Origin: Chloroflexi bacterium UBA6077
GTDB lineage: Bacteria > Chloroflexota > UBA6077
Direction of reading: 5' to 3'
DNA: 64,000 nt
Assembly (NCBI GenBank): GCA_002436065.1
Contig: DIXP01000022.1
Location: 63,172-127,171, forward strand
Shown here: piece by piece, positions 3,158 to 46,719 of the stretch
How the letters are laid out: every line of letters begins with the position of its first letter
Position numbering within the stretch: position 1 is the first letter of the stretch
Translations under genes and position numbers: made by a program
The notes under the pieces: generated by a model
What the model was told of the DNA's origin: nothing
Databases searched by the model: none
Seen by the model: the letters and a program-made list of their open reading frames with translations, nothing else

Positions 3158-3162
3158 GCGTT

Positions 3163-12664: not shown

Positions 12665-12670
12665 CTCCTT

Positions 12671-14588: not shown

Positions 14589-14596
14589 CTCCCGGC

Positions 14597-15151
14597 TCAG
14601 AATTCCACACCCTTCTGGGCAACTACTCCATTCTCGTACGCGTGCTTCACCATTCGCATCTCGGTAACCAGGTCTGCTGCCTCAACAACTTCTGGTGCGG
14701 CACCGCGCCCGGTGAGAACTAGGTGAACTTTCGGATGCTTCTCCTGAATAAGGGCAAGGATTTGTTCGTTGGTAATCAGCTTTGCTTTGACTGCCCCCAA
14801 CACCTCGTCGAGAATCACCAAACGGTATTCCCCAGAACTCACCTTGGTCTTTGCCAACGCCAGGGCTTCCTGGGCCGCATGATGATGCTCCTCAGGAGTA
14901 GCGCGGTTCCACGGGCCCATAGTGAAACCGTGGCCGGTGGTCGTCCATTCGATGTAGGGTGTGAGCTGTTTGGCTGTCTCTTCCTCTCCAGTACACATTG
15001 TGCCCTTGATGAATTGAATGACTGCAACTTTGAACCGGTGCCCCACGGCTCTCATAACCATACCCAAAGCTGCCGTAGTCTTGCCCTTGCCATCACCAGT
15101 AAATACCAGAACCAATCCCTTGGTCTTTGGCGTAGCCTGCGCGGGTGTCAC
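14597..15151 (-). CDS. cobO: ATP:cob(I)alamin adenosyltransferase (CobA/CobO/BtuR type)
   Basis: 184 aa. KGLVLVFTGDGKGKTTAALGMVMRAVGHRFKVAVIQFIKG and LVILDE are diagnostic of the CobA/BtuR family. Confidence 0.85.
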   Translation of the reverse strand: MTPAQATPKTKGLVLVFTGDGKGKTTAALGMVMRAVGHRFKVAVIQFIKGTMCTGEEETAKQLTPYIEWTTTGHGFTMGPWNRATPEEHHHAAQEALALAKTKVSSGEYRLVILDEVLGAVKAKLITNEQILALIQEKHPKVHLVLTGRGAAPEVVEAADLVTEMRMVKHAYENGVVAQKGVEF

Positions 15152-15232
15152 AGTTGCTCTCCTTGGCTAGCTAGAGCCAGAGTCGATAGCCCGAAGTGAT
15201 CCATATAGAGTCGAGAGTAGATGGATGTGGAC

Positions 15233-16414
15233 TTAGGCTATTGCACTCTCAGCCCTAAGCTGGGTTACCCTTTCGTTAGAGTATCCGAGGAGTTCAGTTA
15301 AGATCTCATTAGTATGTTCACCAAGCTGGGGTGGAGCGCTACGGATCGCCGTCCCTGCTTTGGCAAAGCGGTAGGGCATTTCTATGGCGTTTACTGGCCC
15401 GGTGTTGGGGTGAAACATCGTTTTCACCACTTCCCGTGCCATCACGTGAGGATTCTCTAGGGCACGGTCTATCGTATTCACCGGTCCTGCAGGAATGCCT
15501 GCTTCATCGAAGATCTTATCCCATTCATCTGCGGTTTTAGTGCAAAGCTGCGCGCTAATCATGGCGTTGACTCGATCCCGATTCGCCACCCGCTGGGCCA
15601 TTGAATTGAAATCAGGGTCGTCAGCCATCTCGGGCGTAGCCAACAGCTCACAAAACTTGGGCCATTGGCGGTCGTTGACTTGGATGTGGATATATCGACC
15701 ATCGCTGGTTGGATAGTTGGCGCTGGGGACCCGCAAGGGGTGTTCTGAACCTAAACAAGTTGGAATCTCTCCGGTAAAGAAGTAGATGCCGGCAAACATC
15801 GTCATCATCGCCAGGGTGCTGTCTAACATGCTCAATTCTATATACTGGCCTTGGCCGGTTTTTTCACGTCGGTACAGACTAGTAACTATGGAGAAGGCGC
15901 CTAACGATCCACTGAATATGTCGGTAACAGGAACTCCGCACTTCACGGGCTCGCCATCTCGGGGGCCCGTCACGCTCATGAGGCCTGACATTGCCTGAAG
16001 AATGGGATCGTAGGCTCTCCTATCGCGGTACGGCCCGCTCTCGCCGAATCCGGTTATAGAACAGTAGACTATCGATGGGTTGATTGCGGCGAGGGTTTGG
16101 TAGTCGACACCCAGCCTCTGGGGTACACCGGGACCGAAGTTGAGAACTACTACATCAGACTGTCTGGTGAGATCCCATACGGTCTGCTTACCGCCTTCCG
16201 TTTTCAGGTTGATCGCGATACTTCGCTTGCTCCGGTTGACAGAGAAGAAATATCCACTTTCCCCGTTTTTCATTGGAGGGGTTCCTCGTAACTCGTCGCC
16301 GACAAGATCCTCCACTTTGATGACGTTGGCTCCTAACTCGGCCAGCATCATCGTACAATAAGGGCCGGCCAGCACGCGGGTGAGGTCCAGAACTCGTATT
16401 CCAGATAGAGACAT
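15233..16414 (-). CDS. family III (CaiB/BaiF/Frc-type) acyl-CoA transferase, copy A
   Basis: 393 aa. IRVLDLTRVLAGPYCTMMLAELGANVIKVE, FFSVNRSKRS and DPILQAMSGLMSVTG match the family. About two-thirds identical by eye to 45499..46683. Confidence 0.85.
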   Translation of the reverse strand: MSLSGIRVLDLTRVLAGPYCTMMLAELGANVIKVEDLVGDELRGTPPMKNGESGYFFSVNRSKRSIAINLKTEGGKQTVWDLTRQSDVVVLNFGPGVPQRLGVDYQTLAAINPSIVYCSITGFGESGPYRDRRAYDPILQAMSGLMSVTGPRDGEPVKCGVPVTDIFSGSLGAFSIVTSLYRREKTGQGQYIELSMLDSTLAMMTMFAGIYFFTGEIPTCLGSEHPLRVPSANYPTSDGRYIHIQVNDRQWPKFCELLATPEMADDPDFNSMAQRVANRDRVNAMISAQLCTKTADEWDKIFDEAGIPAGPVNTIDRALENPHVMAREVVKTMFHPNTGPVNAIEMPYRFAKAGTAIRSAPPQLGEHTNEILTELLGYSNERVTQLRAESAIA

Positions 16415-16613
16415 GACAGATAGACCTCTCGTCGATAGATATCACCTGAGGGTGGTAAGAACGCCTAATGGAGCCCGACATAGCCGCGACGCGGCGCTAA
16501 GCTCGTGTCACGTGCGCAGAAACAATCTACCTCTTCCAGTGTGTCGGTAGGCTTTCTAAGTAAACAGGGCCGCACGACGAGTCCCGCGCAGCCCTGTTTT
16601 GACCAACTGGCCG

Positions 16614-17408
16614 TTAGCGCCCCTTCCAGATAGGAGCACGCTTTTCCTGGAAGGCCTTTATACCCTCGATAGCGTCTTCACTCGCCTCTAGCTTGTGGAA
16701 CATCAACTCGGCGATGTTATAAGCGTCATCAGACCTCAGATGGAGTGTTCGAAGAGTTACCTCCTTCATAGCCCGAAGCGCTAGTGGCGCATTGGCCAGC
16801 AGTTTATGGGCGTAAGCGAGCGATGCGGACATAGCTTCGCCATCTGGAACCACCTTGTTGACTAATGAGAGATCGTAGGCCTGTTGGGCCGTGATGAGAT
16901 CACCGGTCAACAAGACCTCGAAAGCTTTATTGAGTGGGACGCTACGCGCGAGCATGGTAGGCCCACTGATGGAAGACAGACCTCGCTTCACCTGTGGCCA
17001 TCCGAAAGTGGCCTTCTCGCTGGCGACTCTAATGTCGGAGTTTAGGGCGAGGGCACACCCCTGGGCGAGGCAGTAACCGTTTACAGCCGAGATCATTGGC
17101 TTATAGATGCTGTTCAGAAGACGGTAGAGATCCTGGTGGCTTGGACCCCCTGGAGTCTTATCCAACAGATCATGGCCGGAGCTGAAGGCCGGTCCTCGGC
17201 CCGTAATTATTGCCACCCATAGATCCGGATTGTTGTTGAATTCGGAGAGTGTCTCGTAGAGACGAGTCCGGAGCGCCGCGTTGAGAGCATTCCGCTTCTC
17301 AGGACGATTAAGAGTCAGAATCGCCAGGTGCCCATCAACTTCATACAGTAGCACGTCCTGTCCGCTGGTTGGCGTAGGAGTGGCTGTTGCAGCGTTGTTA
17401 GCCTCCAT
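16614..17408 (-). CDS. enoyl-CoA hydratase/isomerase (crotonase superfamily), copy A1
   Basis: 264 aa. LTLNRPEKRNALN, ITGRGPAFSSGHDL, AVNGYCLAQGCALAL and FGWPQVKRGL match the family. Paralogue of 46720..47514. Confidence 0.85.
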   Translation of the reverse strand: MEANNAATATPTPTSGQDVLLYEVDGHLAILTLNRPEKRNALNAALRTRLYETLSEFNNNPDLWVAIITGRGPAFSSGHDLLDKTPGGPSHQDLYRLLNSIYKPMISAVNGYCLAQGCALALNSDIRVASEKATFGWPQVKRGLSSISGPTMLARSVPLNKAFEVLLTGDLITAQQAYDLSLVNKVVPDGEAMSASLAYAHKLLANAPLALRAMKEVTLRTLHLRSDDAYNIAELMFHKLEASEDAIEGIKAFQEKRAPIWKGR

Positions 17409-17428
17409 TGTTTTCCTCCATCATTATT

Positions 17429-17449
17429 TGCATCAATTTATATGATGCA
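17429..17449 (-). promoter_or_regulatory. AT-rich inverted repeat TGCATCA-N7-TGATGCA, candidate internal operator/promoter
   Basis: Perfect 7-bp arms around tataaat (minus strand), about 20 nt upstream of the GGAGG RBS of the crotonase starting at 17408. Confidence 0.3.
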
Positions 17450-17512
17450 TGCGACAGACCTTCCCCAGGTCTCTCTAGATGTCTGTTTCAACTCTTTGTA
17501 GGTAGTGGGTAC

Positions 17513-18304
17513 CTACTTACCGATGAACTCTGGTTCGCGCTTTTCGATGAAAGCGGCCATGCCCACCTTTTGGTCCTGAGTCGAGAAGCACAAAGCAAAG
17601 AGGTCGACTTCCACTTCACAAGCAGACTCAGTATCAAGGAACATCGATTTGTTCATTGACCGCTTGGCCCCGGCTATGGCGAAAGGCGCCATCTTCGCCA
17701 CGGTTGTCGCCACCTTCATGGCCTCTTCTTGGAGCTGTTCGGCAGGAACCACGGCGCTGACCAGACCCAGCCGTAGGGCTTCTTCCGGGAATATGCGCCT
17801 TCCGGTCAGGATCATCTCCCTTGCGGCCCCCTGGCCCACGATTCGGTGGAGTCTCACTGTTGCACCCCATCCGGGCAGTATCCCAAGTCCTACCTCTGGC
17901 TGCCCGAAGCGAGACTTATCGCTGGCTATGCGGATGTCACAGGCGCACGCCAACTCACATCCCCCACCCAAGGCAACCCCGTTGATGGCAGCGATCACCG
18001 GCTTGTCTATCCATTCGATGAGCTGCAGGAGCTTGTGCCCTCTCCAGGAGAACTCCCTGGCATCAGTAGGCGCCATAGCACTCATCGACTTAATATCGGC
18101 TCCCGCAATGAACGCTCGCTCGCCTACACCGGTAAAGATCACCGCCCGCACTTCCGAATCTCTTGCAGCAGTCTGAAACGCTTCTATGAGATCGTCAATG
18201 ATCGCCGGGTTAAGGGCGTTGTAGGCCTCGGGCCTATCGATGGTTATCCGGAGGACATGCTCGAGTTTCTCCAGCTTGATTTGCCCCGTTTTCATCTTCA
18301 CCAT
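17513..18304 (-). CDS. short-chain enoyl-CoA hydratase (crotonase), copy A2
   Basis: 263 aa. ITIDRPEAYNALN, FTGVGERAFIAGADI, AINGVALGGGCELACACD and FGQPEVGLGILPGWG match the family. Paralogue of 48581..49366. Confidence 0.85.
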   Translation of the reverse strand: MVKMKTGQIKLEKLEHVLRITIDRPEAYNALNPAIIDDLIEAFQTAARDSEVRAVIFTGVGERAFIAGADIKSMSAMAPTDAREFSWRGHKLLQLIEWIDKPVIAAINGVALGGGCELACACDIRIASDKSRFGQPEVGLGILPGWGATVRLHRIVGQGAAREMILTGRRIFPEEALRLGLVSAVVPAEQLQEEAMKVATTVAKMAPFAIAGAKRSMNKSMFLDTESACEVEVDLFALCFSTQDQKVGMAAFIEKREPEFIGK

Positions 18305-18365
18305 CTCCTACGTTTCTTGTGTATATGACTTGGCAAATACGGTGGCGTTCCTCTTCTGCATTGCG

Positions 18366-19556
18366 TTAGCGAAGCAAGTTCTCCACGATGATGGCTGCTC
18401 CCTGGCCGCCCCCAACACACATGCTTGCCATACCCAGTTTGACCTTGCGTCGTGTCATTTCATGTAGCAGTGTTACGAAGATGCGGGCTCCGCTTGCTCC
18501 AACCGGATGGCCGAGGGCGATGGCCCCTCCATTAACGTTTACTCTGGCTGGATCCAGCCCCAATTGGCGGATACAGCCGATCGATTGGGCGGCAAAGGCC
18601 TCGTTCAGCTCGATCAACTCGATGTCGGACAGCTTGAGGTCCGTCTTGTCCAGCACTTTGCGAATCGCATTCACCGGCGCTAAACCCATTATGCGAGGCT
18701 CGATACCGGCCCAAGCGTATCCGATGATCTTTGCCCGGGGCTGGACGCCCAGCTCTTCGGCAGTCTCAGTGCTCATCATGACGACAGCAGCGGCACCGTC
18801 GTTGATCCCTGATGCATTGCCTGCGGTAACAGTGCCACCCGTCTTGAATGCAGGCCGTAACCTGCCTAGCTTCTCTGCGGTCGTCCCCGGGCGAGGGTGC
18901 TCGTCCTTATCCACAACCACAACCTGCCCCTTGGACTGAGGTACTTCGATTGGAACGATCTCCTCGTTGAATAGACCAAGTTCCATAGCCCTGGCAGCCT
19001 TGGCCTGGCTCTCTGCCGCGAAAGCGTCTTGCTCCTCACGCGTGATACTCATCATTTCCGCCACGTTCTCGGCGGTCACTCCCATGTGGATGTTCTCTAT
19101 AGAGCACCACAGTGCCTCTTGAATCATGCTGTCTATGAGCTCACTGTGTCCAAGGCGATAACCGAACCTGGCGCGATTCAACACGTAGGGGGACCGAGAC
19201 ATGCTCTCTGTGCCGCCAGCCACCATGACTCTGGTATCTTCTTGGGCGATGCTCTGAGCGGCCATGCCTATCGCCCGAAGCCCTGAGCCGCATACAAGGT
19301 TGACCGTTGATGCCGTTGACTCGACGGGAATTCCTGCTTTGATGGCTATCTGGCGGGCTACGTTCATCCCAAGCCCGCTTTGCATGACTATGCCCATAAG
19401 CACATCATCTACCTGAGCCGGCTGAACTCCCGCCCTCTTCAACGCTTCGACCACGGCCGCAGTACCCAATTGCTGCGCCGACACCTCAGAGAGTGCCCCT
19501 CCCAGGGTGCCGACAGGGGTGCGAGCAGCACCCACTACTACAACATTAGTTTGCAT
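18366..19556 (-). CDS. acetyl-CoA C-acetyltransferase (thiolase II), copy A
   Basis: ORF 18366..19589. The internal ATG at 19556 gives MQTNVVVVGAARTPVG. Active-site Cys context is [12 protein letters not shown]-terminal [18 protein letters not shown] and CVGGGQGAA are present. Confidence 0.9.
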   Translation of the reverse strand: MQTNVVVVGAARTPVGTLGGALSEVSAQQLGTAAVVEALKRAGVQPAQVDDVLMGIVMQSGLGMNVARQIAIKAGIPVESTASTVNLVCGSGLRAIGMAAQSIAQEDTRVMVAGGTESMSRSPYVLNRARFGYRLGHSELIDSMIQEALWCSIENIHMGVTAENVAEMMSITREEQDAFAAESQAKAARAMELGLFNEEIVPIEVPQSKGQVVVVDKDEHPRPGTTAEKLGRLRPAFKTGGTVTAGNASGINDGAAAVVMMSTETAEELGVQPRAKIIGYAWAGIEPRIMGLAPVNAIRKVLDKTDLKLSDIELIELNEAFAAQSIGCIRQLGLDPARVNVNGGAIALGHPVGASGARIFVTLLHEMTRRKVKLGMASMCVGGGQGAAIIVENLLR

Positions 19557-19612
19557 CCACCGCTCCTTTCTATTGGTAATCGTGTTCAAAGAGAGTTGGC
19601 TATCTTAGAGTT

Positions 19613-21139
19613 TCAGCTTGCATTCGCGGTTGCTCTTTGGCTGCGACCTTTCCATGATTTCCATATAGGGAGCAGTATCGCTACAATAGAGAGCAGCATC
19701 ATGGTGCCGGCGACTGGCCGGGTGAAGAACACAGTCCAATCGTTGTGGTGGGCAATCATGGATGTCATGAATGTGGATTCGGCTAGGGGGCCGAGGATCA
19801 GCCCAAGCACCATGGGCGCTATTGGGTAATCGACCCTCCGCATGAAGTAGCCGATGATCCCGAAGCCAGCCATAATCCAGACATCAGACATGTTGGTGCG
19901 CATGGCAAAGGCACCGAGGAAGCAGAACAGCAGGATGAAGGCAGCCATTATCGACTCTGGTATCTGCATTACCTTTACGAAGAACCGAATCGACAGCAGC
20001 CCGATGAACAACATGAGGATATTGGATACGAACTCTGCCGCGAAGATGGTGTACACCATCTCTTTGCTGGTAATGAAGATCTGAGGGCCCGGCTGAATGC
20101 CGTGGAGTAGGAAGGCTCCCAGAATCAGTGCCGAGGCGCCGCTTCCAGGGATGCCGAGAGTCAAGAGCGGGATCAAGGCTCCGCTGCTGGCGGCGTTGGC
20201 AGCGGCGTTGGGGGCAGCGAGTCCCTCGGGAACACCGGTTCCTAACAAAGCCCTGTTCTTGGAATACTGTTTCTCTACGCCGTACCCGATGAAGGCTGCT
20301 ATCGTAGCGCCAGCACCTGGGACGATACCAATGACCGTACCGATGATTGAGGAGCGCAGCAACACATCCCACAGGCGAGCGATCTCTCGCACTCCTGGGA
20401 TCTCTGCTGCCGCTTTACCTGTGGCAGTCCCGCTTTCGACGGGGAAGCGTTGCTCGAAACGGTCCAACACCTCACCCATGGCGTAGACCCCGATCATTAC
20501 AGGCAGAAAGTCGATCCCGTCCCTCAGTATCGGCGAGCCAAAGGTGAACCTCTCGGCGGCGTACACAACGTCGATCCCAACCGTGGCTAACAACAGCCCT
20601 ATCGAGAGGGAGATCAACGCACTCCGCATGGAACTGGTACCCAGCACAGTGACGCTCATGAGACCGAAGAAGATGATAGAGAAGTACTCCGGCGACGAGA
20701 AGCTGAGGGCTACTTTGGCGAACGGAGGTGACAGGAAGACAAGCACGCATGCGCCGAAGATGCCCCCGATCACAGCGCAGATAATGGCCAACCCGAGGGC
20801 CTTGCCAGCAAAGCCCTTTCGGGCCATGGGATATCCGTCCCATAGGCTCGGGACGTTCTGCGGATCACCAGGAATGTTGAACAGTATTGCGGTGATGGTT
20901 CCCCCAAACACGCCGGAGTGATAGCATGCCACCATTAGCAGGATGGCCGAGGTGGCATCCATTGTGTATGTGAAAGGCAGCATCAGGATGATGGCCATCA
21001 GGGTTGTGATTCCTGGCAAAGCCCCTGCCACGAAACCAATCACGAGGCCGACAATGATCAGACTTAGGTTGAAGGGGCTCACCGCGAGAAGGAAGCCAGC
21101 TCCCAGGTCCTGAAACAGTTCAAGCATGTCATTCCTCAC
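19613..21139 (-). CDS. tctA: tripartite tricarboxylate transporter large permease TctA
   Basis: 508-aa polytopic protein with TctA-type N-terminus (GALPGITTLMAIILMLPFT) and length. Overlaps tctB (ATGA). Confidence 0.8.
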   Translation of the reverse strand: MRNDMLELFQDLGAGFLLAVSPFNLSLIIVGLVIGFVAGALPGITTLMAIILMLPFTYTMDATSAILLMVACYHSGVFGGTITAILFNIPGDPQNVPSLWDGYPMARKGFAGKALGLAIICAVIGGIFGACVLVFLSPPFAKVALSFSSPEYFSIIFFGLMSVTVLGTSSMRSALISLSIGLLLATVGIDVVYAAERFTFGSPILRDGIDFLPVMIGVYAMGEVLDRFEQRFPVESGTATGKAAAEIPGVREIARLWDVLLRSSIIGTVIGIVPGAGATIAAFIGYGVEKQYSKNRALLGTGVPEGLAAPNAAANAASSGALIPLLTLGIPGSGASALILGAFLLHGIQPGPQIFITSKEMVYTIFAAEFVSNILMLFIGLLSIRFFVKVMQIPESIMAAFILLFCFLGAFAMRTNMSDVWIMAGFGIIGYFMRRVDYPIAPMVLGLILGPLAESTFMTSMIAHHNDWTVFFTRPVAGTMMLLSIVAILLPIWKSWKGRSQRATANAS

Positions 21140-21714
21140 ATCATGCCAAGGAGCGAGTAGATCAGCTGGGTTATGCTCTGGAAAGGCTCAATGCCACGTG
21201 GTAGGGATATGTATACGAGTCTGCCGAAGAGGAGCAGCGAGATTACGGTCCCCGCTATGGAGATGAGCAATATGGTAATCGGTCTCCTGAGCCCGCCAAA
21301 GGTGATGAAGGCGAACAGAAAGAGAAAGGCGGCCAAGGCAAATCCAATCACTGGGGCCAAACCGACGAACGTGATAACCGAGACGACTCCTAGCGCCAAG
21401 AGTCTCAAGCTTCTCGGGGTCTGGCCCTCGGCCGCTGATCCAATGGCAACCAAGAGAACTGATCTGCGCTCCCTGATTGCGATGAGGAAATCGGTGACTG
21501 CGGTGACGATGAGGATCACCAGGATGACCGTGGGCCACCAGTCGGGGCCCAAACGACCCTCACGGGCAAAAGAGTGGATATCTTTGGTGAGCAGCAGGAA
21601 GTAAAGCCCAGCTAATACGACAACTGCTGGCCATACAACGGACCCATATCCGCGGAACCTCGAGTTTGGTTGGGACGGTGTCGCGGGACTCGATGAGGTT
21701 GGACCCTTACTCAT
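21136..21714 (-). CDS. tctB: tripartite tricarboxylate transporter small permease TctB
   Basis: ORF 21136..21795. An internal ATG at 21714 is preceded by GAAGGGA. It encodes 4 predicted TM helices and sits between tctC and tctA. Confidence 0.6.
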   Translation of the reverse strand: MSKGPTSSSPATPSQPNSRFRGYGSVVWPAVVVLAGLYFLLLTKDIHSFAREGRLGPDWWPTVILVILIVTAVTDFLIAIRERRSVLLVAIGSAAEGQTPRSLRLLALGVVSVITFVGLAPVIGFALAAFLFLFAFITFGGLRRPITILLISIAGTVISLLLFGRLVYISLPRGIEPFQSITQLIYSLLGMM

Positions 21715-21808
21715 CGCAACATTCCCTTCATGACTAGTCGCGGGAGCGAGACACTCACTGGGTGATGGAATGAGGGGGGCTGGTCTCGCTCCCACATCCC
21801 CTAGGCAA

Positions 21809-22855
21809 TCATTTCTTTGTATTGAGACCGCTCTGCTCTATGACCGCGAGGACTTCGTTTTCATGTTTTGTCAGGTATGCTGGGAATGCATCCGGTCCCA
21901 TCCAGCTCTTCTCATCCGAGTAGGTTTCCTTCAGATAGTCCTTCCACACCTGAGTGCTGCATGCCTTGTTCAGGGCGTCGCCGATCATCTTGATCCGGGT
22001 TGGGTCGGTGCCGGCCTTCGCGACGATGGATCGCCATTGTGGCAGATAGATGTCATAACCCAGCTCTTTGGAGCTAGGGCAGTCTGGGAATGCTGCGGCT
22101 CGCTCCTCGGAGAACATGATCACGGGCTTAAACTGACCACCGGTGAGGTATTGAGTTATGTCCCCACACTGCTCGATAAGAACATCTGCGTGGCCACCTA
22201 AGAGGGACGTGTATCGCTCACCGGGCTGTGGAAAGGGCACTCCCGTCATCTTGACGCCCTTTTTCTCGAAGAACAGCACTAGCAACTCGTCGACGGAGCC
22301 CGCACCAGTAATGGCAACGCGTATCTTGCCAGGATTGGCCTTGGCGGCGGTCTCGACATCCTTCCAGGACTTGTACGGACCGTCGGTCCTGACGAAGAAG
22401 GAGCTAAACTGCTGCATTATTCGGGCGATAGGGGCGAAATCCTTGTGGGTGAAGGGCGCCTGGCCGAAGGCAACGGTGGCGACCTGATCTGCCATGTAGG
22501 CCTCAAAGGCGTAGCCATCGGCTGGTGCAGCGAGCATCTTCACGGTACCAGTGCTGCCCGCAGCTCCTGCTACGTTGATGACAGGCAGAGGGACCCCCAA
22601 CTCCTTCTCTGCCAACGGGGACAACTTCCTGGCCATTTGGTCGGCCCCACCGCCCGCTCCCCAGGGCACGATGAAGTCTATAGGCCGAGTGGGATACTTC
22701 TCAGTCGTTGCCGGGGCCGGTGCTGCTTGTTTCGCGGGGACAGAAGTGGGGGCGGAAGCCGCGGGTGCGCTACATGCGGTAACTCCGAAGAGGCACAAAA
22801 TCACCGCTAAGGGACTAATTACCCTGGCGATTGCTCGGATTTCGACCGTACGCAT
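21809..22855 (-). CDS. tctC: TctC/Bug-family tripartite tricarboxylate transporter substrate-binding lipoprotein
   Basis: Lipobox LFGVTAC, a short Ala/Pro linker, YPTRPIDFIVPWGAGGGADQMAR and the typical Bug-family length. Confidence 0.8.
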   Translation of the reverse strand: MRTVEIRAIARVISPLAVILCLFGVTACSAPAASAPTSVPAKQAAPAPATTEKYPTRPIDFIVPWGAGGGADQMARKLSPLAEKELGVPLPVINVAGAAGSTGTVKMLAAPADGYAFEAYMADQVATVAFGQAPFTHKDFAPIARIMQQFSSFFVRTDGPYKSWKDVETAAKANPGKIRVAITGAGSVDELLVLFFEKKGVKMTGVPFPQPGERYTSLLGGHADVLIEQCGDITQYLTGGQFKPVIMFSEERAAAFPDCPSSKELGYDIYLPQWRSIVAKAGTDPTRIKMIGDALNKACSTQVWKDYLKETYSDEKSWMGPDAFPAYLTKHENEVLAVIEQSGLNTKK

Positions 22856-23122
22856 GATCCAGTCTCCTTCCAACTATGTCTAGAAGAGCTAAACCTGGAT
22901 ACTCCGCCGTGAATGCCAATCCTTATAGCTATATGCAAGGGTTCTCAATCTCCTCTTGCTTTCATCCTCTCCTTTCTAGTTGTGCCGACACCGATATCCG
23001 AGGCATCGGAAGCGCCCACTCCTTGATCAACGACTAATAAGATCTTCCTGAAAAGAAGAACCGGCCTTGGACTTAGCAATAGCTAATCAATGCGATAGGA
23101 CTGGCGGGGTTTCCCCAATTGC

Positions 23123-24532
23123 CTAAGCGTCTACGAGGTGGCGCTTCATGATGCGTAAAGCTGTGTCTGGAGCGATGCCAGCCAATAGACCCATGGCGTA
23201 CATGATGTAGGACTGATCGATAACCATCTTTGGTCTTCTTGGACGCAAAGAAAAGGGATTCGCAGCATCGAACAACGCACTACACAAGACGCCTCGCGGA
23301 TCGCTTCCTCGGGCGAAGATACCACCCGTGCCGATCAAATATTGGACAGTTGTCAGATCCTTTCCATACAGAAGGTTGACTGGCCCTTCTGATGTATAGA
23401 CCATCTCCAACCGTCCCGAGTGGCGCTGCACTGCCACCTCAACTGCCGCCTTGGCCAGAGCTACATCAAGGGCGTAACCCTCCGTTGATTGTGGCACGGT
23501 CGATGTCTCGCGGGTCAACCTATCGATGGCCGTATGAATTTGTTCCGGTGAAGCCCCGCACTGGACGGCAATGGCATCGGCACCAACCGCCTCGAGTATC
23601 GAAACAGCGTTGTATCGGAGTCCTAGATCGCCCTCGACAGTGCGCTTGGCAAAGGGCTCGGGCAACCCTTTCGGTAACCATGAGGTGTCACTGGGGTGAC
23701 CATGAGCTACAGAATGAACGTCGGTTGTAGCCCCGCCAACATCCACGACAACGAGATCGCCGAGCCCCTGTTCCTTAGGACTACCCTGGGCCAATAACGT
23801 TGCTGCCTGGAGTACCGCCATTGGGGTTGGCATCAGGATGTCGCCAATCAGGTCCCGCACGCGGTGTATGCCTTTGGCCTCGACGATGCGCCGCATGAAG
23901 ACTTCGCGAATAGCTGCCCGCGCAGGTTCGACGTTGAGCCGACCGAGTTCCGGCATCACGTTCTCGGTTACCACGATTTCTTTGTTCTCAGCCTGGAGGA
24001 GGTCCTCTGCATCTTCACTGGCATCGCTGTTTCCGGCGTAAAGAATGGGACAGGTGAGGGTAGAGCCAGCCAACATGCGGGCATTGAAGAGAATGACCTC
24101 AGCATCACCACCATCTGTCCCGCCTGCCAGCAGAATAATCTCTGGGCGCAACTCCTCCAGCCAGGCGATATCGCGGCGTCGAAGATGGTAGGAAAAGGCG
24201 CGCAACACCTTTGCCCCCGCGCCCAAGGCGGCACGCTTAGCGGCTTCGGCAGTGAGTTCAGGCACCAGACCGATAGCCACCATCCGAAGTCCTCCTGCGG
24301 CGCTACTTGACGCCAGGAATCGGCACTCCTCGAGGTTGGTCAGCCCCAGTTCTTTGCGTACCTGATTGAGGGCTGACTGCAGACCGACCATCACGTTGGT
24401 ATCGACCGTGGATGGTGATTGGACTCGCGCCAGAAGCTGCTCGGCCGAAACATCGACCGCGACGGCCTTTGTATAGGTACTGCCAAAATCGATCAATAGA
24501 GCGAGGCCCATTAGCTGAGACCTAAATCGCAC
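23123..24532 (-). CDS. glmL: GlmL/MutL-type mutase accessory (reactivase-like) protein
   Basis: 469 aa. LLIDFGSTYTKAVAVD and VVDVGGATTDVHSV are ASKHA-fold phosphate motifs typical of methylaspartate-mutase accessory protein GlmL. An alternative ATG start at 24511 overlaps the glmS stop by 1 nt. Confidence 0.75.
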   Translation of the reverse strand: MRFRSQLMGLALLIDFGSTYTKAVAVDVSAEQLLARVQSPSTVDTNVMVGLQSALNQVRKELGLTNLEECRFLASSSAAGGLRMVAIGLVPELTAEAAKRAALGAGAKVLRAFSYHLRRRDIAWLEELRPEIILLAGGTDGGDAEVILFNARMLAGSTLTCPILYAGNSDASEDAEDLLQAENKEIVVTENVMPELGRLNVEPARAAIREVFMRRIVEAKGIHRVRDLIGDILMPTPMAVLQAATLLAQGSPKEQGLGDLVVVDVGGATTDVHSVAHGHPSDTSWLPKGLPEPFAKRTVEGDLGLRYNAVSILEAVGADAIAVQCGASPEQIHTAIDRLTRETSTVPQSTEGYALDVALAKAAVEVAVQRHSGRLEMVYTSEGPVNLLYGKDLTTVQYLIGTGGIFARGSDPRGVLCSALFDAANPFSLRPRRPKMVIDQSYIMYAMGLLAGIAPDTALRIMKRHLVDA

Positions 24533-24972
24533 TTCAAGTCGGCGATAGCGGTTTCGGGCTTCGTTCCCGGTGGGTAGATACGATCAAAACCCATATCTGA
24601 GAAGAGTTGCTCTGTCTTGGGCCATTCTTCAGGGTCAGTCACCAGTATCCCGCCGATGTAGAGAAGGATGTTGGCTAGCCCGGCCTCCCGGCACTTGGCG
24701 CGCAGGCCCTCGCAGTCGATACGTGCCATTCCGTACAGGGACGATACTAGGATTGCGTCGGCTGCCGTTTCCCTGGCTGCACTGATGAACTCGTTGGGCA
24801 GGACCAGGGCTCCGAGATATGCAACTCTGAATCCGGCGCGCTCGAAGGCCCAGCGTAATATCGAAATTCCAGCTACATGGGCATCGAGCCCGATAGTACC
24901 CAGGACAATGGTCGGCTGCCGCTTCGCATCCGCCATTCCAGTACTACCTTTCTGAGTTACCGCGTCATTCAT
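24511..24972 (-). CDS. glmS: B12-binding small subunit of a glutamate-mutase-family enzyme (GlmS/MutS-like)
   Basis: 153 aa. TIVLGTIGLDAHVAGISIL (DxHxxG), ADAILVSSLYG (SxL) and ILLYIGG are present. Collinear with Clostridium MutS as far as I recall that sequence. Confidence 0.85.
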   Translation of the reverse strand: MNDAVTQKGSTGMADAKRQPTIVLGTIGLDAHVAGISILRWAFERAGFRVAYLGALVLPNEFISAARETAADAILVSSLYGMARIDCEGLRAKCREAGLANILLYIGGILVTDPEEWPKTEQLFSDMGFDRIYPPGTKPETAIADLKCDLGLS

Positions 24973-24994
24973 AGCTCAACCATCCTTTCCAGGC

Positions 24995-26473
24995 TCAGTA
25001 TGGTCGCTCCGCCGCCTCTTCTGAGAGTGGCCGAGATGCCCAGGTGGGAATCTGAATCACCCAGTCTAGATCTGCTGTGGTGTTTTCCCTTCGCTCCCTC
25101 TCCGCTATTCGGGACCGATGGTATTCGATCACTTCTGGCGGAAGCGGGACATTACCGTGATCCAGATATCGCACGGCGCCTCGTGCATCGCGGACGAGCT
25201 TGACCTGCGACCGGAGCGGCAACCAGGGCGAGAAGACGGTGTCTAATACTCCTGCCTCAACGGCGCGGCAGGCCCCGAGGGCAACATCTCCATCGCCGAG
25301 CTCCAGTACCTTTTCAAGGATTGCGCGCGCTTCCTTCTCGATCATTTCGCGTTCGAGACTCAGTTCCTCGCTCTCAGGGAGTCGCTGGCCTTTCAAGAGC
25401 CGCGCGATTTGAGCCGCTACTAGCATGGCCTCGCGATTGCCCTTACCTGTTACGGTAGTCCGGGCCTCGTCGGGAGACTTGATTTGACAGCCATTGCAGC
25501 CGGCCAGGGCAGCTACCGCAGTGTTCCAGGCAATCTGTCCAGCCATGGATATGGGCTCCCTCGGCCAATCGCCTACGTAGTTGTAGGCCCACGGGTACAC
25601 ATGCACGTTATGGAAACCAAACCGTTCGAAGTATTCCGGAGCAAGCTTGCTGACGACTTGGATGCCTGCGACGTCTTGAACCATGCCCATCCCCGTAGCG
25701 ATGCCCAAATCCATATACTTGGTGCCCTGCGCTGCAGCCAGGAGACCTTGGATCACCCCTACCGCCACCTTGAAGCCAAGGGTATCCCAGCCAGACAGGT
25801 TAGCGAAGTCACGTCTAAGGATAGGAACGCCACGTTCGTTGAAGTATGCGGTAAGGCGATCTATGTACTGATGGTTGTAGATCATCAATTCCAGAGGATA
25901 GTCTCGAGAGTGTTGAATGACTTGCTCGATACTCTTTATCGTTCCACAGGTCCAGCCGCCTGCGAGCGCAATTTCCCAGGCTAGGCGCGCGTCCTCGTCA
26001 TTGCCATCGGTGGATAGTGGAACTGTAGTGGACTCATTTAGTGCGCGAGCCCCTGCCACACCGTGTAGCACGATTGGGTACCCGTTTAAGTACGAAAAGC
26101 CATCGCGACGGCTGCGCTCTATGGCATCCTGTGATTTCGCGAACTGGCACTTACGGGAATAGGTGTCGGTGAAAACGTGCCAGCGGTCTGGTTTGAGATC
26201 CTCAGACTCATGGATATGATCGCTTACCTGCTCGACCAATGCGTGTCCGCAAGATGGAACGAGCTGTAGACGGTCCTCCTTCATTGCCTGTTCGTTGCGA
26301 AGAGATGCGAACTTCCACCATGGCTGTTCTCGCTGGCGGGCTACGCTTTCATCGAGCGTTGCCGGATCCATAAGTTCATCGCCTGTTGGCCATTGCCGGA
26401 GAACCTCGTGTCGGACAGTGAGGAAATAGTCCCAATCCCACTGGTCCATTCGCACATTAGTCGCCAGCGCCAT
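24995..26473 (-). CDS. GlmE/MutE-family adenosylcobalamin mutase large subunit, divergent substrate pocket
   Basis: ORF 24995..26491. An ATG at 26473 is preceded by GGAGGG. RHEVLRQWPTG, YLNGYP and the C-terminal ~110 aa (LLKGQRLPES...GDGDVALGACRAVEAGVLD...VRYLDHGNVPLP) match GlmE. The canonical glutamate-binding residues appear replaced (see findings). Confidence 0.75.
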   Translation of the reverse strand: MALATNVRMDQWDWDYFLTVRHEVLRQWPTGDELMDPATLDESVARQREQPWWKFASLRNEQAMKEDRLQLVPSCGHALVEQVSDHIHESEDLKPDRWHVFTDTYSRKCQFAKSQDAIERSRRDGFSYLNGYPIVLHGVAGARALNESTTVPLSTDGNDEDARLAWEIALAGGWTCGTIKSIEQVIQHSRDYPLELMIYNHQYIDRLTAYFNERGVPILRRDFANLSGWDTLGFKVAVGVIQGLLAAAQGTKYMDLGIATGMGMVQDVAGIQVVSKLAPEYFERFGFHNVHVYPWAYNYVGDWPREPISMAGQIAWNTAVAALAGCNGCQIKSPDEARTTVTGKGNREAMLVAAQIARLLKGQRLPESEELSLEREMIEKEARAILEKVLELGDGDVALGACRAVEAGVLDTVFSPWLPLRSQVKLVRDARGAVRYLDHGNVPLPPEVIEYHRSRIAERERRENTTADLDWVIQIPTWASRPLSEEAAERPY

Positions 26474-26579
26474 AATGTGCCCTCCAATCAATCAATTACT
26501 TAGCTTGCGTGGTACAGCGCGTACTTTCACCCACTCCGGACCTAGAAGCGACTGAAGACAGATACAGCTTGATTGCCTG

Positions 26580-27752
26580 TCATGGAGCCCATGATTGCTG
26601 GTCTACTACCATCTGAGGCACCCGTTCAAGGTCTGGGACGGCTTGGAACTCCGGGTCCACGACAACTCCTCCTGGTGCTGAGATCAAGGGCCGTCGGAGA
26701 ATCGATGTCTGGAGCTTCAAGAAACCGTTCATCTCTCCCGCAGTCTTGATTCCCAACCCTACAGCCGCTGAAGCCTCTTGGTGGCATCCGATTTCGCCAG
26801 ACACGCCGTTACCCAGGACTACCGTGAGGCCCAAACGCTTTGCCAGGGCAACCTGTTCGCCCAGAAGCCGAACGCCTCCTGACTTCATGAGCTTGAACTT
26901 GACGAACTGGGCACAGCCGAGAGCCGCCGTACGCTCAACGTCTTCCGTCCCGAGAATCGATTCATCCAGCATTAGGGGAAGTGGTGAGATGCGCGACAGT
27001 GATACCTGAGACTCCCAATCACCTGCTGGGAAGGGCTGTTCGAATAGTTCTATAGCTTCGGGAGTCACCTTCTGCACGAATTCCCGAGCGTCATCGAAGG
27101 AATAACCCTGATTAGCATCGATCCGGATCAGTGTGCCTGGGGCTTGCCTGGCCAGTTCCTGGATTAAGGTAACGCGATGGATATCAAGGCTGACGTCGAA
27201 GCCTACCTTGACCTTGATGGTAGTGTACTTTCGCTCTATTTGGGTCCAGAAGCCTGACTCTAGCTCTGGTTCGTGCTCTGCAGATAGGAGGCCTACCAGG
27301 GGTACCAGGGCCGAAGGGACTACCTTTGGCTCGTCACCACTCGGGATACGTCGCGACACCAGTTCTAACGCGGTCATCAAAGGAGAAACGGGATATCCCC
27401 CGTGTGCGGCATAGGGGAGGATGCTCTCGATGGCAGTCTCTGGCGACATGCCGACTACTTTGGGACCGTGAGCGCACAGAAAATCCCATATGTCCTCGGC
27501 ACTCTCGGGGACGTAGCCTTGACACGCTGTGACTTCGCCCCAGGCTGTGCGCCCATCTTCCGTACGCACTTGGATAAGAAACGTGTCGAAACTGTGGAAG
27601 GTGGCGAAGGACAAATGGTAGGGCTCTTTAAGGGGTTGCTTCATCCTGTAGAGGTCGACCGCAACGATTGGGTGTGTCTCCTCGCGCCTACGGTCGTAAT
27701 GGGTGTGGAGATGGCCTTGCGAATTCGAATCCTTGTAGTTCTCTGTCAACAC
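26580..27752 (-). CDS. enolase-superfamily enzyme, muconate-lactonizing (MLE) subgroup (dipeptide-epimerase/racemase-like)
   Basis: 390 aa. Motifs are TIKVKVG (KxK), IRIDANQGY (metal Asp), LFEQPFP (metal Glu), LMLDESI (metal Asp) and KFKLMKSGG (second catalytic Lys). GTG start is preceded by GTGAGGTGA. Confidence 0.75.
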   Translation of the reverse strand: MLTENYKDSNSQGHLHTHYDRRREETHPIVAVDLYRMKQPLKEPYHLSFATFHSFDTFLIQVRTEDGRTAWGEVTACQGYVPESAEDIWDFLCAHGPKVVGMSPETAIESILPYAAHGGYPVSPLMTALELVSRRIPSGDEPKVVPSALVPLVGLLSAEHEPELESGFWTQIERKYTTIKVKVGFDVSLDIHRVTLIQELARQAPGTLIRIDANQGYSFDDAREFVQKVTPEAIELFEQPFPAGDWESQVSLSRISPLPLMLDESILGTEDVERTAALGCAQFVKFKLMKSGGVRLLGEQVALAKRLGLTVVLGNGVSGEIGCHQEASAAVGLGIKTAGEMNGFLKLQTSILRRPLISAPGGVVVDPEFQAVPDLERVPQMVVDQQSWAP

Positions 27753-27975
27753 GTCACCTCACTGTACCTCTTCCCCGCCAAAGGGCCTGCGGGGATCAGC
27801 GGATAAATCAGTTGAATGCAGCATGTCAACAGCGCCGCTCAGCGCTGTAAGAACCTATCGACGACAAGTGTTTGACGACGATGCCATTATGAGAGCACAG
27901 ACAGCAGGTAGTTGTCAATCCCCCAAATTTTCTCTTTTCGATGACTTGGATGATCGGCAGCGGCTCACTGTGCCT

Positions 27976-28008
27976 CCGATTTCGCGGCCAATTCGGCCGC
28001 GAAATCGG
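27976..28008. promoter_or_regulatory. perfect 14-bp inverted repeat CCGATTTCGCGGCC-aattc-GGCCGCGAAATCGG in the divergent intergenic region
   Basis: Arms are 27976-27989 and 27995-28008. It sits roughly midway between the module-A operon start (27752, minus) and the nrpR-like start (28266, plus). Confidence 0.4.
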
Positions 28009-28265
28009 TCATCCCCTTTGATGGGTGCAGAAAGGGGCCTGGATTCGCCAGGCAATGGAGGGACTTCATCTCTTGACACACCCCCAGGCGTGTCCTATCA
28101 TAATGCCCGGCGTAAACGACATATTGTTGTCGATAAGGCTGTCTGGCTGGATGACTCGCCATAGTACGAGTATGAGTTTCTGGTGGTCATCGGTGTCGTG
28201 ATTGCCTGACGCCCAATCGATAAGGTAATAATTGAGAAGTACAGTTCCAAAGATCGGTGAGGATT

Positions 28266-29390
28266 ATGCCTGAGCTTGGTGTAGACAACGACACTCGTTT
28301 AGAGATCATGCGTTTCATAGCAGAGATGGATAGTCCTATTGGTGCAGATGCTCTTGCAAGCCTGTTAAAAGATCGCGGAATAAGTCTCACTTCAACTGCC
28401 GTTCGTTACCATCTACGGATGTTGGATCAACAGGGTTTTACCTCGCGAATTGGCAAGCAAGGAAGAGTGATCACATCAAGAGGATGGGACGAATTACAGC
28501 GTTCTCGTGTTGATGCTCGGATGCAGCAAGGACTTGCAGTTTACGAGACGGCGGCACAGGTGGCGGCTCTGGGGTGGGCAAAGGGAAATGGGCATGTTGT
28601 CGGGGCGCTCACAATCTTCCCTACCGAAGAACTCTCCACAGTACTTCTGTATGCAGTCAAGAGCTGTCGGGCTGGTTTGTGCATAAGCGATAGAATGGCA
28701 CTGCTGAAGAGTGGCGATAAGTTCGGCACGAAAGTGATACCTCCAGATAAGACGGGAATAGTAACTGTTGCTACAACCGGCATCGATGGTTTCCTGTTGT
28801 CTAACGGTGTCTTGTTTCGACCTACCTTCGGTGGCATTGTCGAAGTCATAGACTGGCATCCATATCGTTTCGTTGACATCGTGGATTTTGGTCGGGGAAC
28901 TCGCGCTCCTGTGGATATACTGATCTCCTCCGGTAGCACACATTTGCTGGGAATCATAGAGAAAGGCAATGGTCTCTTGCTGGCAGACATACGGGAGATA
29001 ATAGGTGCAGCCAGGGAGCATGTGCTACGCCTTTTGCGCGACATAGAGACGTATGGCCTGGGTGGCGTGCTGATGGTCGGACAGATCGGGCAGCCAGTGA
29101 TGGGCGTTCCAGTGCAGCAGCATACGTTTGGGGTGGCAATGATTGCAGGTATCAATCCTACCGTTGCTGCTTTCGAGGCTGGTGTATCGGCAGAGTATTC
29201 GCTGAACCAGGGAATGATAGACTTTGCATCCCTTCGCTCAGTAGAGCAGTTGGCGCCTACCCTGTTCGATAGGAATCAGTTGGCAGTGGGTGGGCGACTG
29301 GTAATATGGGAGCAGACTGAGCAGGTATCTCTAGATAGGGGGCACCATCTCCGCCAAGAAAGTCGACACGATCTAGAGATACCTGCTTAG
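28266..29390 (+). CDS. NrpR-like transcriptional regulator (winged HTH + DUF128/NrpR regulatory domain), copy 1
   Basis: ORF 28257..29390. DNDTRLEIMRFIAEMDSPIGADALASLLKDRGISLTSTAVRYHLRMLDQQGFTSRIGKQGRVITSRGWDEL matches the N-terminal pattern of methanogen NrpR (AVRYHLK.LD..G...KVG..GR.IT.KG). ATG at 28266 follows GGTGAGGA. Confidence 0.75.
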   Translation: MPELGVDNDTRLEIMRFIAEMDSPIGADALASLLKDRGISLTSTAVRYHLRMLDQQGFTSRIGKQGRVITSRGWDELQRSRVDARMQQGLAVYETAAQVAALGWAKGNGHVVGALTIFPTEELSTVLLYAVKSCRAGLCISDRMALLKSGDKFGTKVIPPDKTGIVTVATTGIDGFLLSNGVLFRPTFGGIVEVIDWHPYRFVDIVDFGRGTRAPVDILISSGSTHLLGIIEKGNGLLLADIREIIGAAREHVLRLLRDIETYGLGGVLMVGQIGQPVMGVPVQQHTFGVAMIAGINPTVAAFEAGVSAEYSLNQGMIDFASLRSVEQLAPTLFDRNQLAVGGRLVIWEQTEQVSLDRGHHLRQESRHDLEIPA

Positions 29391-29524
29391 AACATGATCG
29401 CTTAGCATCTACGTACTCAAGCCTAGAGCTTACCGGGCGTGAGCGAGAGCAAGTGGCAAGCATCAACTTGGCGGTCGTGTCAATGCGCATCGTTGATCTA
29501 TCAGCAGGGGGTGATGGTGACGAT

Positions 29525-30409: not shown

Positions 30410-30513
30410 AATGAATCCTCCCCTTGATAGTGTGCCGATCATCCGCCGCGACTCCTGACCAAGTCAGTGACGAGCCGGCATCTACCACCCTTCCTCAGCA
30501 GTAGCGGTAAGTG

Positions 30514-30528
30514 AAATATATTATATTC
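30514..30528 (-). promoter_or_regulatory. AT-rich near-palindrome GAATATAATATATTT (operator and/or -10 region)
   Basis: 14 of 15 nt identical to the perfect palindrome GAATATAATATATTC at 43929-43943. Contains TATAAT on the minus strand, about 100 nt upstream of the prpB-like start. Confidence 0.45.
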
Positions 30529-30547
30529 GTGGTTCCGTGCAGACCTC

Positions 30548-31252: not shown

Positions 31253-31376
31253 ACCATCCTCGAGATCCTATGTGGAGATACCCTGATGGATTACACTCGC
31301 ATGATGACTGTGCTCTTTACCATGAGTAAGTATCTCATCCACCTTCAGTTCTTGCCACTGGTCGAGACTTCGTTCG

Positions 31377-32306: not shown

Positions 32307-32429
32307 TACTGTGATATCCTCTCGTTGTTATGATGGTCCCATTACCGTCATCATGGTGCCGCTTCCGCGAGCTACTTTTTCTTCTGTATCCCAAGCATTG
32401 GGGTCAGCTCGGTGAAGACGGCGTCCATT

Positions 32430-46683: not shown

Positions 46684-46719
46684 TGCCTCCCCACCTCCCG
46701 ATCAGTGAGACTAGTTTGA

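Follow-up and report, generated by a model that had tools for sequence, protein, structure and literature searches.

An MLE-subgroup enolase-superfamily enzyme at the head of a GlmE-like mutase operon in a Chloroflexota genome, and its probable role in a non-glutamate B12 pathway

In the pathway from glutamate through methylaspartate, glutamate mutase rearranges its substrate so that a leaving group comes to lie beta to a carboxylate, and an enolase-superfamily enzyme, methylaspartate ammonia-lyase (MAL), abstracts the alpha proton and eliminates that group. Within 64,000 nucleotides of DNA from Chloroflexi bacterium UBA6077 (contig DIXP01000022.1; the whole stretch is called the window below), an operon for a mutase of this kind opens with a different sort of enolase-superfamily gene, here named ENO, which a preliminary description made from the sequence alone had assigned to the MLE subgroup. 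What does such an enzyme do in the place where a methylaspartase would be expected? Our best explanation, to which we give a probability of roughly one half, is that ENO is an active Mg2+-dependent enolase-superfamily enzyme whose conserved operon partners are GlmE-like mutases with a replaced set of glutamate-binding residues, and that it serves a non-glutamate pathway, with beta-elimination as its probable chemistry. The genes at the centre of the question are as follows, types A and B being pocket variants defined below.

27752..26580, reverse strand: ENO, MLE-subgroup enolase-superfamily enzyme, operon gene 1; intact open reading frame (ORF), 390 aa
26473..24995, reverse strand: GlmE-like adenosylcobalamin (AdoCbl) mutase large subunit, type B; Pfam Met_asp_mut_E; ATG start, GGAGGG Shine-Dalgarno sequence
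24972..24511, reverse strand: GlmS B12-binding small subunit, type-B lineage; DxHxxG motif present as LDAHVAG; 170 bits against a cutoff of 110
24532..23123, reverse strand: GlmL/MutL accessory protein (reactivase or chaperone), type-A lineage; NCBIfam NF040745, 600 bits against a cutoff of 475

ENO starts with GTG behind a GAGGTGA Shine-Dalgarno sequence, and its residues are numbered throughout on the 389-aa protein P0001. The translation contains all five motifs listed in the preliminary description (TIKVKVG, IDANQGY, LFEQP, LMLDES and KFKLMKSGG). Pfam returned MR_MLE_C (E = 2e-26; 93.5 bits, cutoff 29.4) with a weak match to MR_MLE_N, and neither MAAL_N nor MAAL_C was detected in the protein. 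The best NCBIfam matches were all to MLE-subgroup families and all far below cutoff, at no more than 82 bits against cutoffs of 130-500: muconate cycloisomerase TIGR02534 scored highest (81.7 bits, cutoff 335), alongside the L-Ala-D/L-Glu epimerase AEE (78.7 bits, cutoff 500), OSBS (77.5 bits, cutoff 130.6), the DgcA racemase (66.4 bits, cutoff 400) and cis-3-hydroxyproline dehydratase. With every curated NCBIfam cutoff missed, membership of a characterised MLE family (MLE, OSBS, AEE, NSAR, DgcA or cis-3-hydroxy-L-proline dehydratase) was rejected.

Structural comparison gave the same subgroup. The top PDB sequence match was 2p88, an N-succinyl-Arg/Lys racemase (E = 2e-21), and an AlphaFold2 model computed from a 45-homologue alignment (A1; mean pLDDT 92, pTM 0.88) shows alternating strand and helix elements arranged as an N-terminal capping domain and a (beta/alpha)7-beta barrel. 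In this model K179-x-K181 lies in strand 177-181 and K286 just after strand 282-285, while the metal ligands D211, E237 and D262 lie at the ends of strands 207-211, 233-237 and 259-261 or directly beyond them; the three ligands align with those of 2p88 and are invariant both in the 45 homologues and in 89 family members. Residues invariant in A1 are K179, K181, D211, N213, Q214, E237, D262, E263 and K286, together with E129 and K345; Y44, E72, Y79, W245, N314, E325, E339 and N341 are invariant and, like E129 and K345, specific to the family. ENO keeps all 37 of the residues that are at least 97% conserved in the 89 members. The top 50 PDB chains found by Foldseek were all deposited as MLE-type or MR/MLE-family proteins (TM-score 0.74-0.85, identity 17-24%), with no methylaspartase structure among them. 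Judged on sequence and predicted structure, ENO is an intact MLE-subgroup enzyme of the enolase superfamily, roughly equidistant from every characterised family.

We searched for a MAL with the enzyme of the canonical Peptoclostridium acidaminophilum cluster (L132; glmS-glmL-glmE-MAL-cobA) as query. The best tblastn match in the window had E = 1.9, phmmer against all six-frame window ORFs gave only matches with E > 5, and each of the scanned ORFs of 300-520 aa has a non-MAL assignment; the earlier statement that the 64 kb hold no methylaspartase-like ORF therefore stands. Neither a second enolase-superfamily gene nor a second GlmE-like gene was found in the window, which has one of each, and the other loci fetched for comparison (about 130) yielded no MAL. 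The possibility that ENO is itself a disguised MAL was ruled out by Pfam, blastp, hhalign and Foldseek: blastp aligned the two proteins at E = 0.02 over 68 aa, and hhalign of the ENO family profile with MAL gave a probability of 22% at 19% identity. By these comparisons ENO and MAL are related at the superfamily level only. The preliminary description would have been overturned by grouping with bona fide MALs; on the hhalign values and the lack of a MAAL domain ENO does not group with them, and Pfam, NCBIfam, the PDB search, AlphaFold2, Foldseek and hhalign all agree with its view that the first gene of the operon belongs to the MLE subgroup.

The mutase beside ENO is also unusual. We numbered GlmE positions on the Clostridium cochlearium protein (1CCW, 1I9C), in whose structures Arg66, Arg100, Arg149, Glu171 and Tyr181 are glutamate-site residues. 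The pocket of the window GlmE reads S66, R100, D149, G170, T171, Q177 and H181, that is, it carries R66S, R149D, E171T, Y177Q and Y181H. An altered pocket had been reported in the preliminary description, and the alignment agrees, with Arg100 the sole glutamate-holding residue retained. The protein is 33% identical to C. cochlearium GlmE and reaches 300 bits against TIGR01503 (cutoff 390); GlmS and GlmL of the window pass the curated NCBIfam cutoffs for methylaspartate mutase. Comparison across loci sorted GlmE pockets into three main types, given here for positions 66/100/149/170/171/177/181.

Canonical GlmE: R R R [N/Y/F] E Y Y; a MAL neighbour in three controls, a nonribosomal peptide synthetase (NRPS) cluster in the fourth
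Type-A GlmE: R R L [F/Y/L] L [Y/D/V] [Y/F]; usual neighbour ENO
Type-B GlmE: [S/Q] R D G T [Q/E] H; usually without ENO

All four control GlmEs keep RRR-E-YY, namely those of the three MAL-linked controls (Peptoclostridium acidaminophilum, Ensifer adhaerens and Gemmobacter fulvus; L132, L134 and L135) and that of an NRPS cluster without an annotated MAL. The type-A pocket, with R149L and E171L, occurs in every ENO-linked GlmE besides the window's (49/49), and RRL[F/Y]LYY in 121 of 121 near database relatives of a type-A query; type-A proteins are 37-51% identical to Clostridium GlmE. The window GlmE is 51-72% identical to other type-B members, whose typical operon is GlmE-GlmS-GlmL-TctCBA with a CaiB-type CoA-transferase, a specific acyl-CoA dehydrogenase (ACAD) and an AcuI-like reductase. 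Type B accounts for roughly 90 of 239 listed GlmE relatives, and type A for thousands of database sequences, all auto-annotated 'methylaspartate mutase'. Judging by its pocket, the substrate of the window mutase is not glutamate.

Further pockets were seen among proteins P0213-P0240: Q-R-N-x-x-[E/D]-H in about 10 proteins that are 37-45% identical to the window GlmE, D-R-R-S-S-S-Y, and R-R-gap-S/A-G-E-Y. Such variants suggest still more specificities. On a Roseibium aggregatum plasmid (L133, 8533-11234), the NRPS cluster holds a 664-aa GlmE with the canonical pocket; its neighbours include an 'amino acid racemase' and an aromatic amino acid lyase, and there is neither MAL nor ENO. This GlmE presumably serves 3-methylaspartate biosynthesis, a third context for GlmE.

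Is the pairing of ENO with a variant GlmE peculiar to one contig? ENO has more than 2,200 database relatives at E <= 1e-10, the closest being 57% identical, and the closest relatives of the window genes come from metagenome-assembled genomes (MAGs) of Chloroflexota. Among metagenomic contexts, GlmS, GlmE and GlmL adjoin an ENO homologue in five of seven, in several gene orders and usually with TctCBA. A sample of one genome per species gave 80 ENO loci at 37-51% identity from at least 10 lineages, including Chloroflexota, Desulfobacterota, Peptococcaceae, Burkholderiales, Polynucleobacter, Nitrospirota and Eremiobacterota. Mutase genes (GlmE, GlmS or GlmL) lie within 10 kb of ENO in 46 of the 80, and near ENO in 22 of the 37 loci whose flanks reach at least 6 kb in both directions. 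Of the 41 loci that have a GlmE, all but one have it on the ENO strand, the median distance between the two genes being about 2 kb, and both type-A GlmEs picked independently of ENO (L130 and L131) have an adjacent MR_MLE_C gene. The absence of any conserved co-occurrence would have spoken against the pairing proposed in the preliminary description; these counts (46/80 loci, 40/41 on one strand, and L130 and L131) mean that co-occurrence is conserved. Among cultured, annotated plasmid-borne sequences, the search for ENO gave a single match, a Sulfitobacter protein of 34% identity whose context is unrelated.

A small stand-alone LUD_dom protein (LutC-like, about 210 aa) was seen repeatedly in or beside type-A mutase operons (L010, L016, L001, L130 and L131); it matched no NCBIfam family.

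The window ENO shares the strand of GlmE, GlmS and GlmL and is accompanied by a TctC-type transporter, as in the family's ENO/variant-GlmE pairs, but its GlmE is type B where the partner in those pairs is type A. Only two of 37 type-B loci (L093-L129) hold an ENO homologue, L095 and L114. L095 carries the closest relative of the window GlmE (72% identical), with ENO about 4 kb away. In neighbour-joining trees the window GlmS falls within a type-B-linked clade (28 GlmS proteins) and is 80% identical to that of L095, whereas GlmL falls inside a type-A-linked clade (31 A, 1 B) and ENO groups with the ENOs of four type-A operons, L001, L004, L007 and L013. TctA of the window is 70-73% identical to TctA of the same four type-A operons; against type-B operons the values were 45-48% in one compared set and up to 52% across all type-B loci. 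Since type-B GlmE normally occurs without ENO and the regular ENO partner is type A, the window operon is, by these affinities, a mosaic: a type-A-style operon fitted with a type-B E/S catalytic pair, and not an example of the conserved pair. The proposal in the preliminary description of a mutase and an enolase-superfamily partner acting on a different substrate is partly supported: it holds for the family, where the conserved mutase is type A and not the type B of the window.

Both mutase types can also be seen together. In two Eremiobacterota loci (L080, Vulcanimicrobiaceae, and L089, Ca. Eremiobacteraeota; 1-17500), type A, type B and ENO form one cluster in the order type-B GlmE-GlmS, aldehyde dehydrogenase, ComA-like protein, SdhB, FrdA-like flavoprotein, AMP-ligase, enoyl-CoA hydratase (ECH), ENO, GlmS, GlmL, type-A GlmE and TctBAC, with a single GlmL for two mutases. 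In base composition, the block at 14600-32810 of the window, which covers the mutase operon, the NrpR-like gene, a PrpB-like lyase, GntR, DUF6282 and CMD genes, has a third-codon-position GC of 0.58-0.72 against 0.75-0.87 for most other window genes; several genes of the carboxylate-gene block at 35.8-45 kb are also low (0.67-0.74). The 14600-32810 block may have been acquired horizontally, which would fit a mosaic operon.

How the operon might use its product depends on the genes downstream of the mutase.

22873..19613, reverse strand: TctC-TctB-TctA tripartite tricarboxylate-type transporter
19589..18366, reverse strand: thiolase
18304..16614, reverse strand: two crotonase-type enoyl-CoA hydratases
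16414..15233, reverse strand: family III (CaiB-type) CoA-transferase, nearest to succinate-glutarate/mesaconate CoA-transferases and under their cutoffs
15151..14597, reverse strand: CobA-type cob(I)yrinic acid a,c-diamide adenosyltransferase, supplying AdoCbl; TIGR00708, 183 bits against a cutoff of 168

From this layout we infer the following order of steps. TctCBA would import an organic acid, whose carbon skeleton would be rearranged by the type-B GlmE/GlmS mutase, with CobA supplying AdoCbl and GlmL reactivating the enzyme. ENO would then abstract the proton alpha to the carboxylate of the rearranged product and, most likely, expel a beta leaving group placed there by the rearrangement, giving an alpha,beta-unsaturated acid. 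This acid would be activated by the family III CoA-transferase and hydrated by the hydratases, and the product, after oxidation, cleaved by thiolase. By analogy of position, ENO most likely fills the slot that MAL holds in canonical glutamate-mutase clusters. That it is a functional partner in a non-glutamate B12 pathway we regard as likely; that it is a beta-eliminating lyase falls slightly short of even odds. An enoate-forming lyase is favoured because the operon has two hydratases, because no ACAD was found anywhere in the 64 kb, and because ENO and ACAD never go together: seven type-B loci without ENO carry the specific ACAD (64-78% identity), and no sampled type-B locus has both. Naming the substrate from context was tried with 2-hydroxyglutarate, 2-methyleneglutarate, homocysteate, 2-hydroxy-4-sulfobutanoate, sulfosuccinate, 2-sulfoglutarate and D-glutamate, and none of these was preferable.

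The wider ENO family offers a lead on leaving groups. We clustered the genes of 84 non-redundant ENO loci and annotated the recurrent clusters, which included the following.

NADPH:quinone-reductase-like MDR: 25 loci, usually directly after ENO
SauS, acylating sulfoacetaldehyde dehydrogenase: 18 loci; 762 bits against a cutoff of 600
FrdA/SdhA-like flavoprotein: 13 loci
SdhB: 10 loci
TauD-like dioxygenase: 9 loci
Succinyl-CoA-synthetase-like alpha/beta pair: 7 loci
Xsc, sulfoacetaldehyde acetyltransferase: 7 loci; 971 bits against a cutoff of 676
TauE: 6 loci, directly after ENO in three
Pta: 5 loci

ComA-like genes were present in three ENO loci (L080, L089 and L130), and class I fumarase subunits lie near ENO in at least one (L009). 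At least one sulfonate marker (Xsc, SauS, TauE, TauD-like or ComA-like) was found in 29 of the 84 loci, comprising 13 of 49 with a mutase and 16 of 35 without. Phosphosulfolactate-synthase-family (ComA) genes adjoin type-A mutase/ENO clusters at L130 3036-3848 and L080 4167-5054, and L130 also holds a phosphoenolpyruvate-utilising enzyme. According to PMC11489063, sulfoacetate and 3-sulfopropionate are substrates of succinyl-CoA-synthetase homologues and of acylating aldehyde dehydrogenases, and degradation of 3-sulfopropionate is unreported save for a thesis proposing a route via sulfoacrylate and sulfolactate. In Proteobacteria, ENO thus appears from its gene neighbourhoods to be embedded in organosulfonate catabolism, and in the related proteobacterial loci a candidate substrate is a sulfonated carboxylate that would lose sulfite. 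To the lineage of the window this link would carry solely through the strictly conserved ENO active site.

Taken together, the ENO family and the two variant GlmE clades might define unrecognised AdoCbl carbon-skeleton pathways in which a mutase acts first and an MLE-type enzyme then eliminates, the proteobacterial substrates being organosulfonates. On this view, which we consider speculative and as a whole more probably wrong than right by a good distance, the substrates would be sulfonated C4/C5 dicarboxylate analogues, tied to the fate of compounds such as 3-sulfopropionate; the leaving group, moved beta to the carboxylate, would depart as sulfite or water; and the system would mirror the glutamate mutase/methylaspartase pair mechanistically, with a member of a different enolase subgroup. 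Were it true, the window would show that an E/S cassette can be swapped between pathways while enolase, GlmL and transporter are kept.

Several observations weigh against the reading of ENO as the eliminating partner of the mutase. The type of mutase found in the window usually occurs without ENO, the ENO/type-B pairing may be a recent recombination, and functional coupling within it is a prediction. About 40% of ENO family loci have no mutase within 10 kb, and among 89 proteins no residue position separates mutase-linked from mutase-free ENOs; the ENO substrate can therefore exist without the mutase. No sequence feature tells a lyase from a racemase, OSBS, MLE and racemases all keeping the same two-lysine set, and the complementarity of ENO and ACAD is drawn from 12 loci. 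The 3-hydroxyacyl-CoA dehydrogenase required ahead of thiolysis lies outside the operon, the nearest being at 47.7 kb. Finally, sulfonate markers are absent among the annotated window genes and in the flanks of about 10 kb at L001, L004, L007 and L013.

The alternative that survives best, though we hold it to be unlikely, is that ENO is a racemase or epimerase, performing a two-base 1,1-proton transfer on the transported acid or on the mutase product without elimination, so that a stereospecific mutase or downstream enzyme could use both stereoisomers. Sulfonates of abiotic origin or from different organisms do occur as both enantiomers. The top neighbours of ENO include the dipeptide epimerase 3q45 as well as the racemase 2p88, yet muconate-lactonizing enzymes are equally close, at 23% identity. 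The active site has invariant lysines on each of its two faces (K179/K181 and K286), and identical active-site residues with and without a mutase would suit a general stereo-inverting helper; against this, the ENO family has an invariant G-E-x-N-G where dipeptide epimerases have DxD, their ammonium-binding motif, and two hydratases without an ACAD are more simply explained by an enoate-forming lyase.

Could ENO instead have nothing to do with the mutase beside it? It might be left over from the replacement of type-A subunits by the type-B GlmE/GlmS cassette, now acting on another TctC-imported acid or idle. The mosaic operon, the usual lack of ENO beside type-B mutases and the roughly 40% of loci in which ENO occurs without any mutase all lend themselves to this account. 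We nevertheless think it improbable: ENO is intact, with 37 of 37 family-invariant residues and its own Shine-Dalgarno sequence; no terminator separates it from GlmE; and L095, whose GlmE is 72% identical, has ENO about 4 kb away, with type B and ENO also paired in L114, L080 and L089. An ordinary glutamate-fermentation or methylaspartate operon, with ENO as a non-orthologous MAL replacement acting on (2S,3S)-3-methylaspartate, is very improbable, for although MAL itself is an enolase-superfamily enzyme, GlmS and GlmL score above the curated methylaspartate-mutase cutoffs and the CaiB-type CoA-transferase is as in canonical clusters, the window GlmE has lost Arg66, Arg149, Glu171 and Tyr181 at 33% identity and under the TIGR01503 cutoff, all four control GlmEs (three MAL-linked, one NRPS-linked) have the full pocket, and neither a citramalyl-CoA/methylmalyl-CoA lyase nor a class I fumarase was found in the operon, whose genes have other assigned functions.

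The surroundings of the operon include a divergent regulator gene and an intergenic region with a potential control element.

28257..29390, forward strand: NrpR-like regulator, divergent, with HTH_12 and NRD1_2 domains; presumed operon regulator
27976..28008, no strand: perfect inverted repeat, 14 bp per arm around a 5-nt spacer, between ENO and the NrpR-like gene, CCGATTTCGCGGCC-AATTC-GGCCGCGAAATCGG

The inverted repeat, found once in the window, could act as an operator or form a hairpin, and a promoter-like site lies in the same intergenic region at 28073-28101. The methanogen NrpR operator GGAA-N6-TTCC has three matches in the window against 0.9 expected, none of them in the regulatory region. 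The gap between ENO and GlmE is 106 nt, and a scan of it found no promoter or terminator consensus.

Elsewhere in the window the operon's downstream genes have a second version: the set at 15233-19589 (CoA-transferase, ECH, ECH, thiolase) is paralogous to one at 45499-50633 (CoA-transferase, ECH, 3-hydroxybutyryl-CoA dehydrogenase, ECH, thiolase), the operon copy being the one without a dehydrogenase, and each set lies near an NrpR-like regulator (28257-29390 and 50975-52027). The NrpR family is best known from nitrogen control in methanogens, with 2-oxoglutarate as effector. Between 29525 and 45340 the window is rich in carboxylate-catabolic genes, among them a PrpB-like lyase above the methylisocitrate-lyase cutoff, a GntR regulator, DUF6282 and CMD-like proteins, three MmgE/PrpD paralogues, a 745-aa BaiCD/OYE-type Fe-S flavoenzyme and further TctC and TctA genes; TctC homologues number four in the window. 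An aconitase X (AcnX) family gene (56731-58110; Pfam E = 2e-145) showed no link to the operon; characterised members of this family include cis-3-hydroxy-L-proline dehydratase (PMC5144071).

If our reading is right, ENO would be a new isofunctional family in the MLE subgroup. Glutamate mutase and 2-methyleneglutarate mutase are the only AdoCbl mutases known to us that use free acids. Full-text literature searches turned up nothing on GlmE-like mutases with an MLE-type partner, on GlmE clades with variant pockets, or on sulfonate catabolism that involves a B12 mutase; absence from the library searched does not prove that no such report exists. Thousands of genes auto-annotated 'methylaspartate mutase subunit E' lack the glutamate-binding residues, which amounts to a systematic misannotation, and their tie to a different enolase-superfamily partner would leave at least two new mutase specificities to discover. 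B12 radical chemistry may connect to organosulfonate turnover, a field where the breakdown of products such as 3-sulfopropionate is still a gap (PMC11489063). The pathway lends itself to direct experiment, its proteins being small and soluble; a few ENO loci, Pelomicrobium sp. G1 (L046) among them, are in records not labelled as MAGs, and the type-A version is present in Polynucleobacter, some members of which are in culture.

How, then, does the operon compare with known systems? The desulfonation routes through Xsc with SauS/SauT and through the sulfolactate sulfo-lyase SuyAB are linked to the ENO family through Xsc and SauS orthologues, TauE and succinyl-CoA-synthetase-like ligases, which flank many of its members, but none of their marker genes is in the window. 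We know of no enolase-superfamily enzyme or GlmE-like mutase in any sulfonate pathway, nor did the literature searched contain one.

With MLE-subgroup enzymes, represented by dipeptide epimerases (3q45, 1jpm), N-succinyl-amino-acid racemases (2p88, 4a6g) and muconate cycloisomerases (1muc, 3dgb), and by OSBS, ENO shares the fold at TM-scores of 0.74-0.85, the metal ligands, the KxK motif and the strand-6 lysine, and it would share their partial reaction, proton abstraction alpha to a carboxylate. It differs from them in being 17-24% identical to any one, in falling below all NCBIfam equivalogs and in its family-specific invariant residues; for no characterised member of the subgroup do we know of a report of a context of B12-mutase and sulfonate genes.

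The nicotinate fermentation of Eubacterium barkeri offers a second pairing, in which a free-acid AdoCbl mutase, 2-methyleneglutarate mutase, is followed by 3-methylitaconate isomerase, which removes an alpha proton from the branched product. The logic of that system matches the one proposed here, with an isomerase of PrpF/DapF-type rather than enolase fold and a mutase (Mgm) that is a single fused polypeptide.

The glutamate mutase and MAL clusters differ from the window in several respects. The window's partner is an MLE-subgroup protein 19% identical to MAL, with KxK instead of the MAL catalytic arrangement; its GlmE pocket keeps only Arg100, and TctCBA is built into the operon; and downstream it has hydratases and a thiolase in place of a mesaconase and CoA-ester lyase. 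The three controls encode MAL together with the mutase. The canonical architecture runs glmS-glmL-glmE-MAL, then a CaiB-type CoA-transferase and a CoA-ester lyase, a class I fumarase lying close by, and the window order, ENO-GlmE-GlmS-GlmL-...-thiolase-ECH-ECH-CaiB-type CoA-transferase, parallels it. Both have an AdoCbl mutase with separate S and E subunits and an enolase-superfamily gene beside it, and the window also shares GlmL with two of the three controls (L132 and L134), a CobA-type adenosyltransferase with L132 and a CaiB-type CoA-transferase with L134 and L135.

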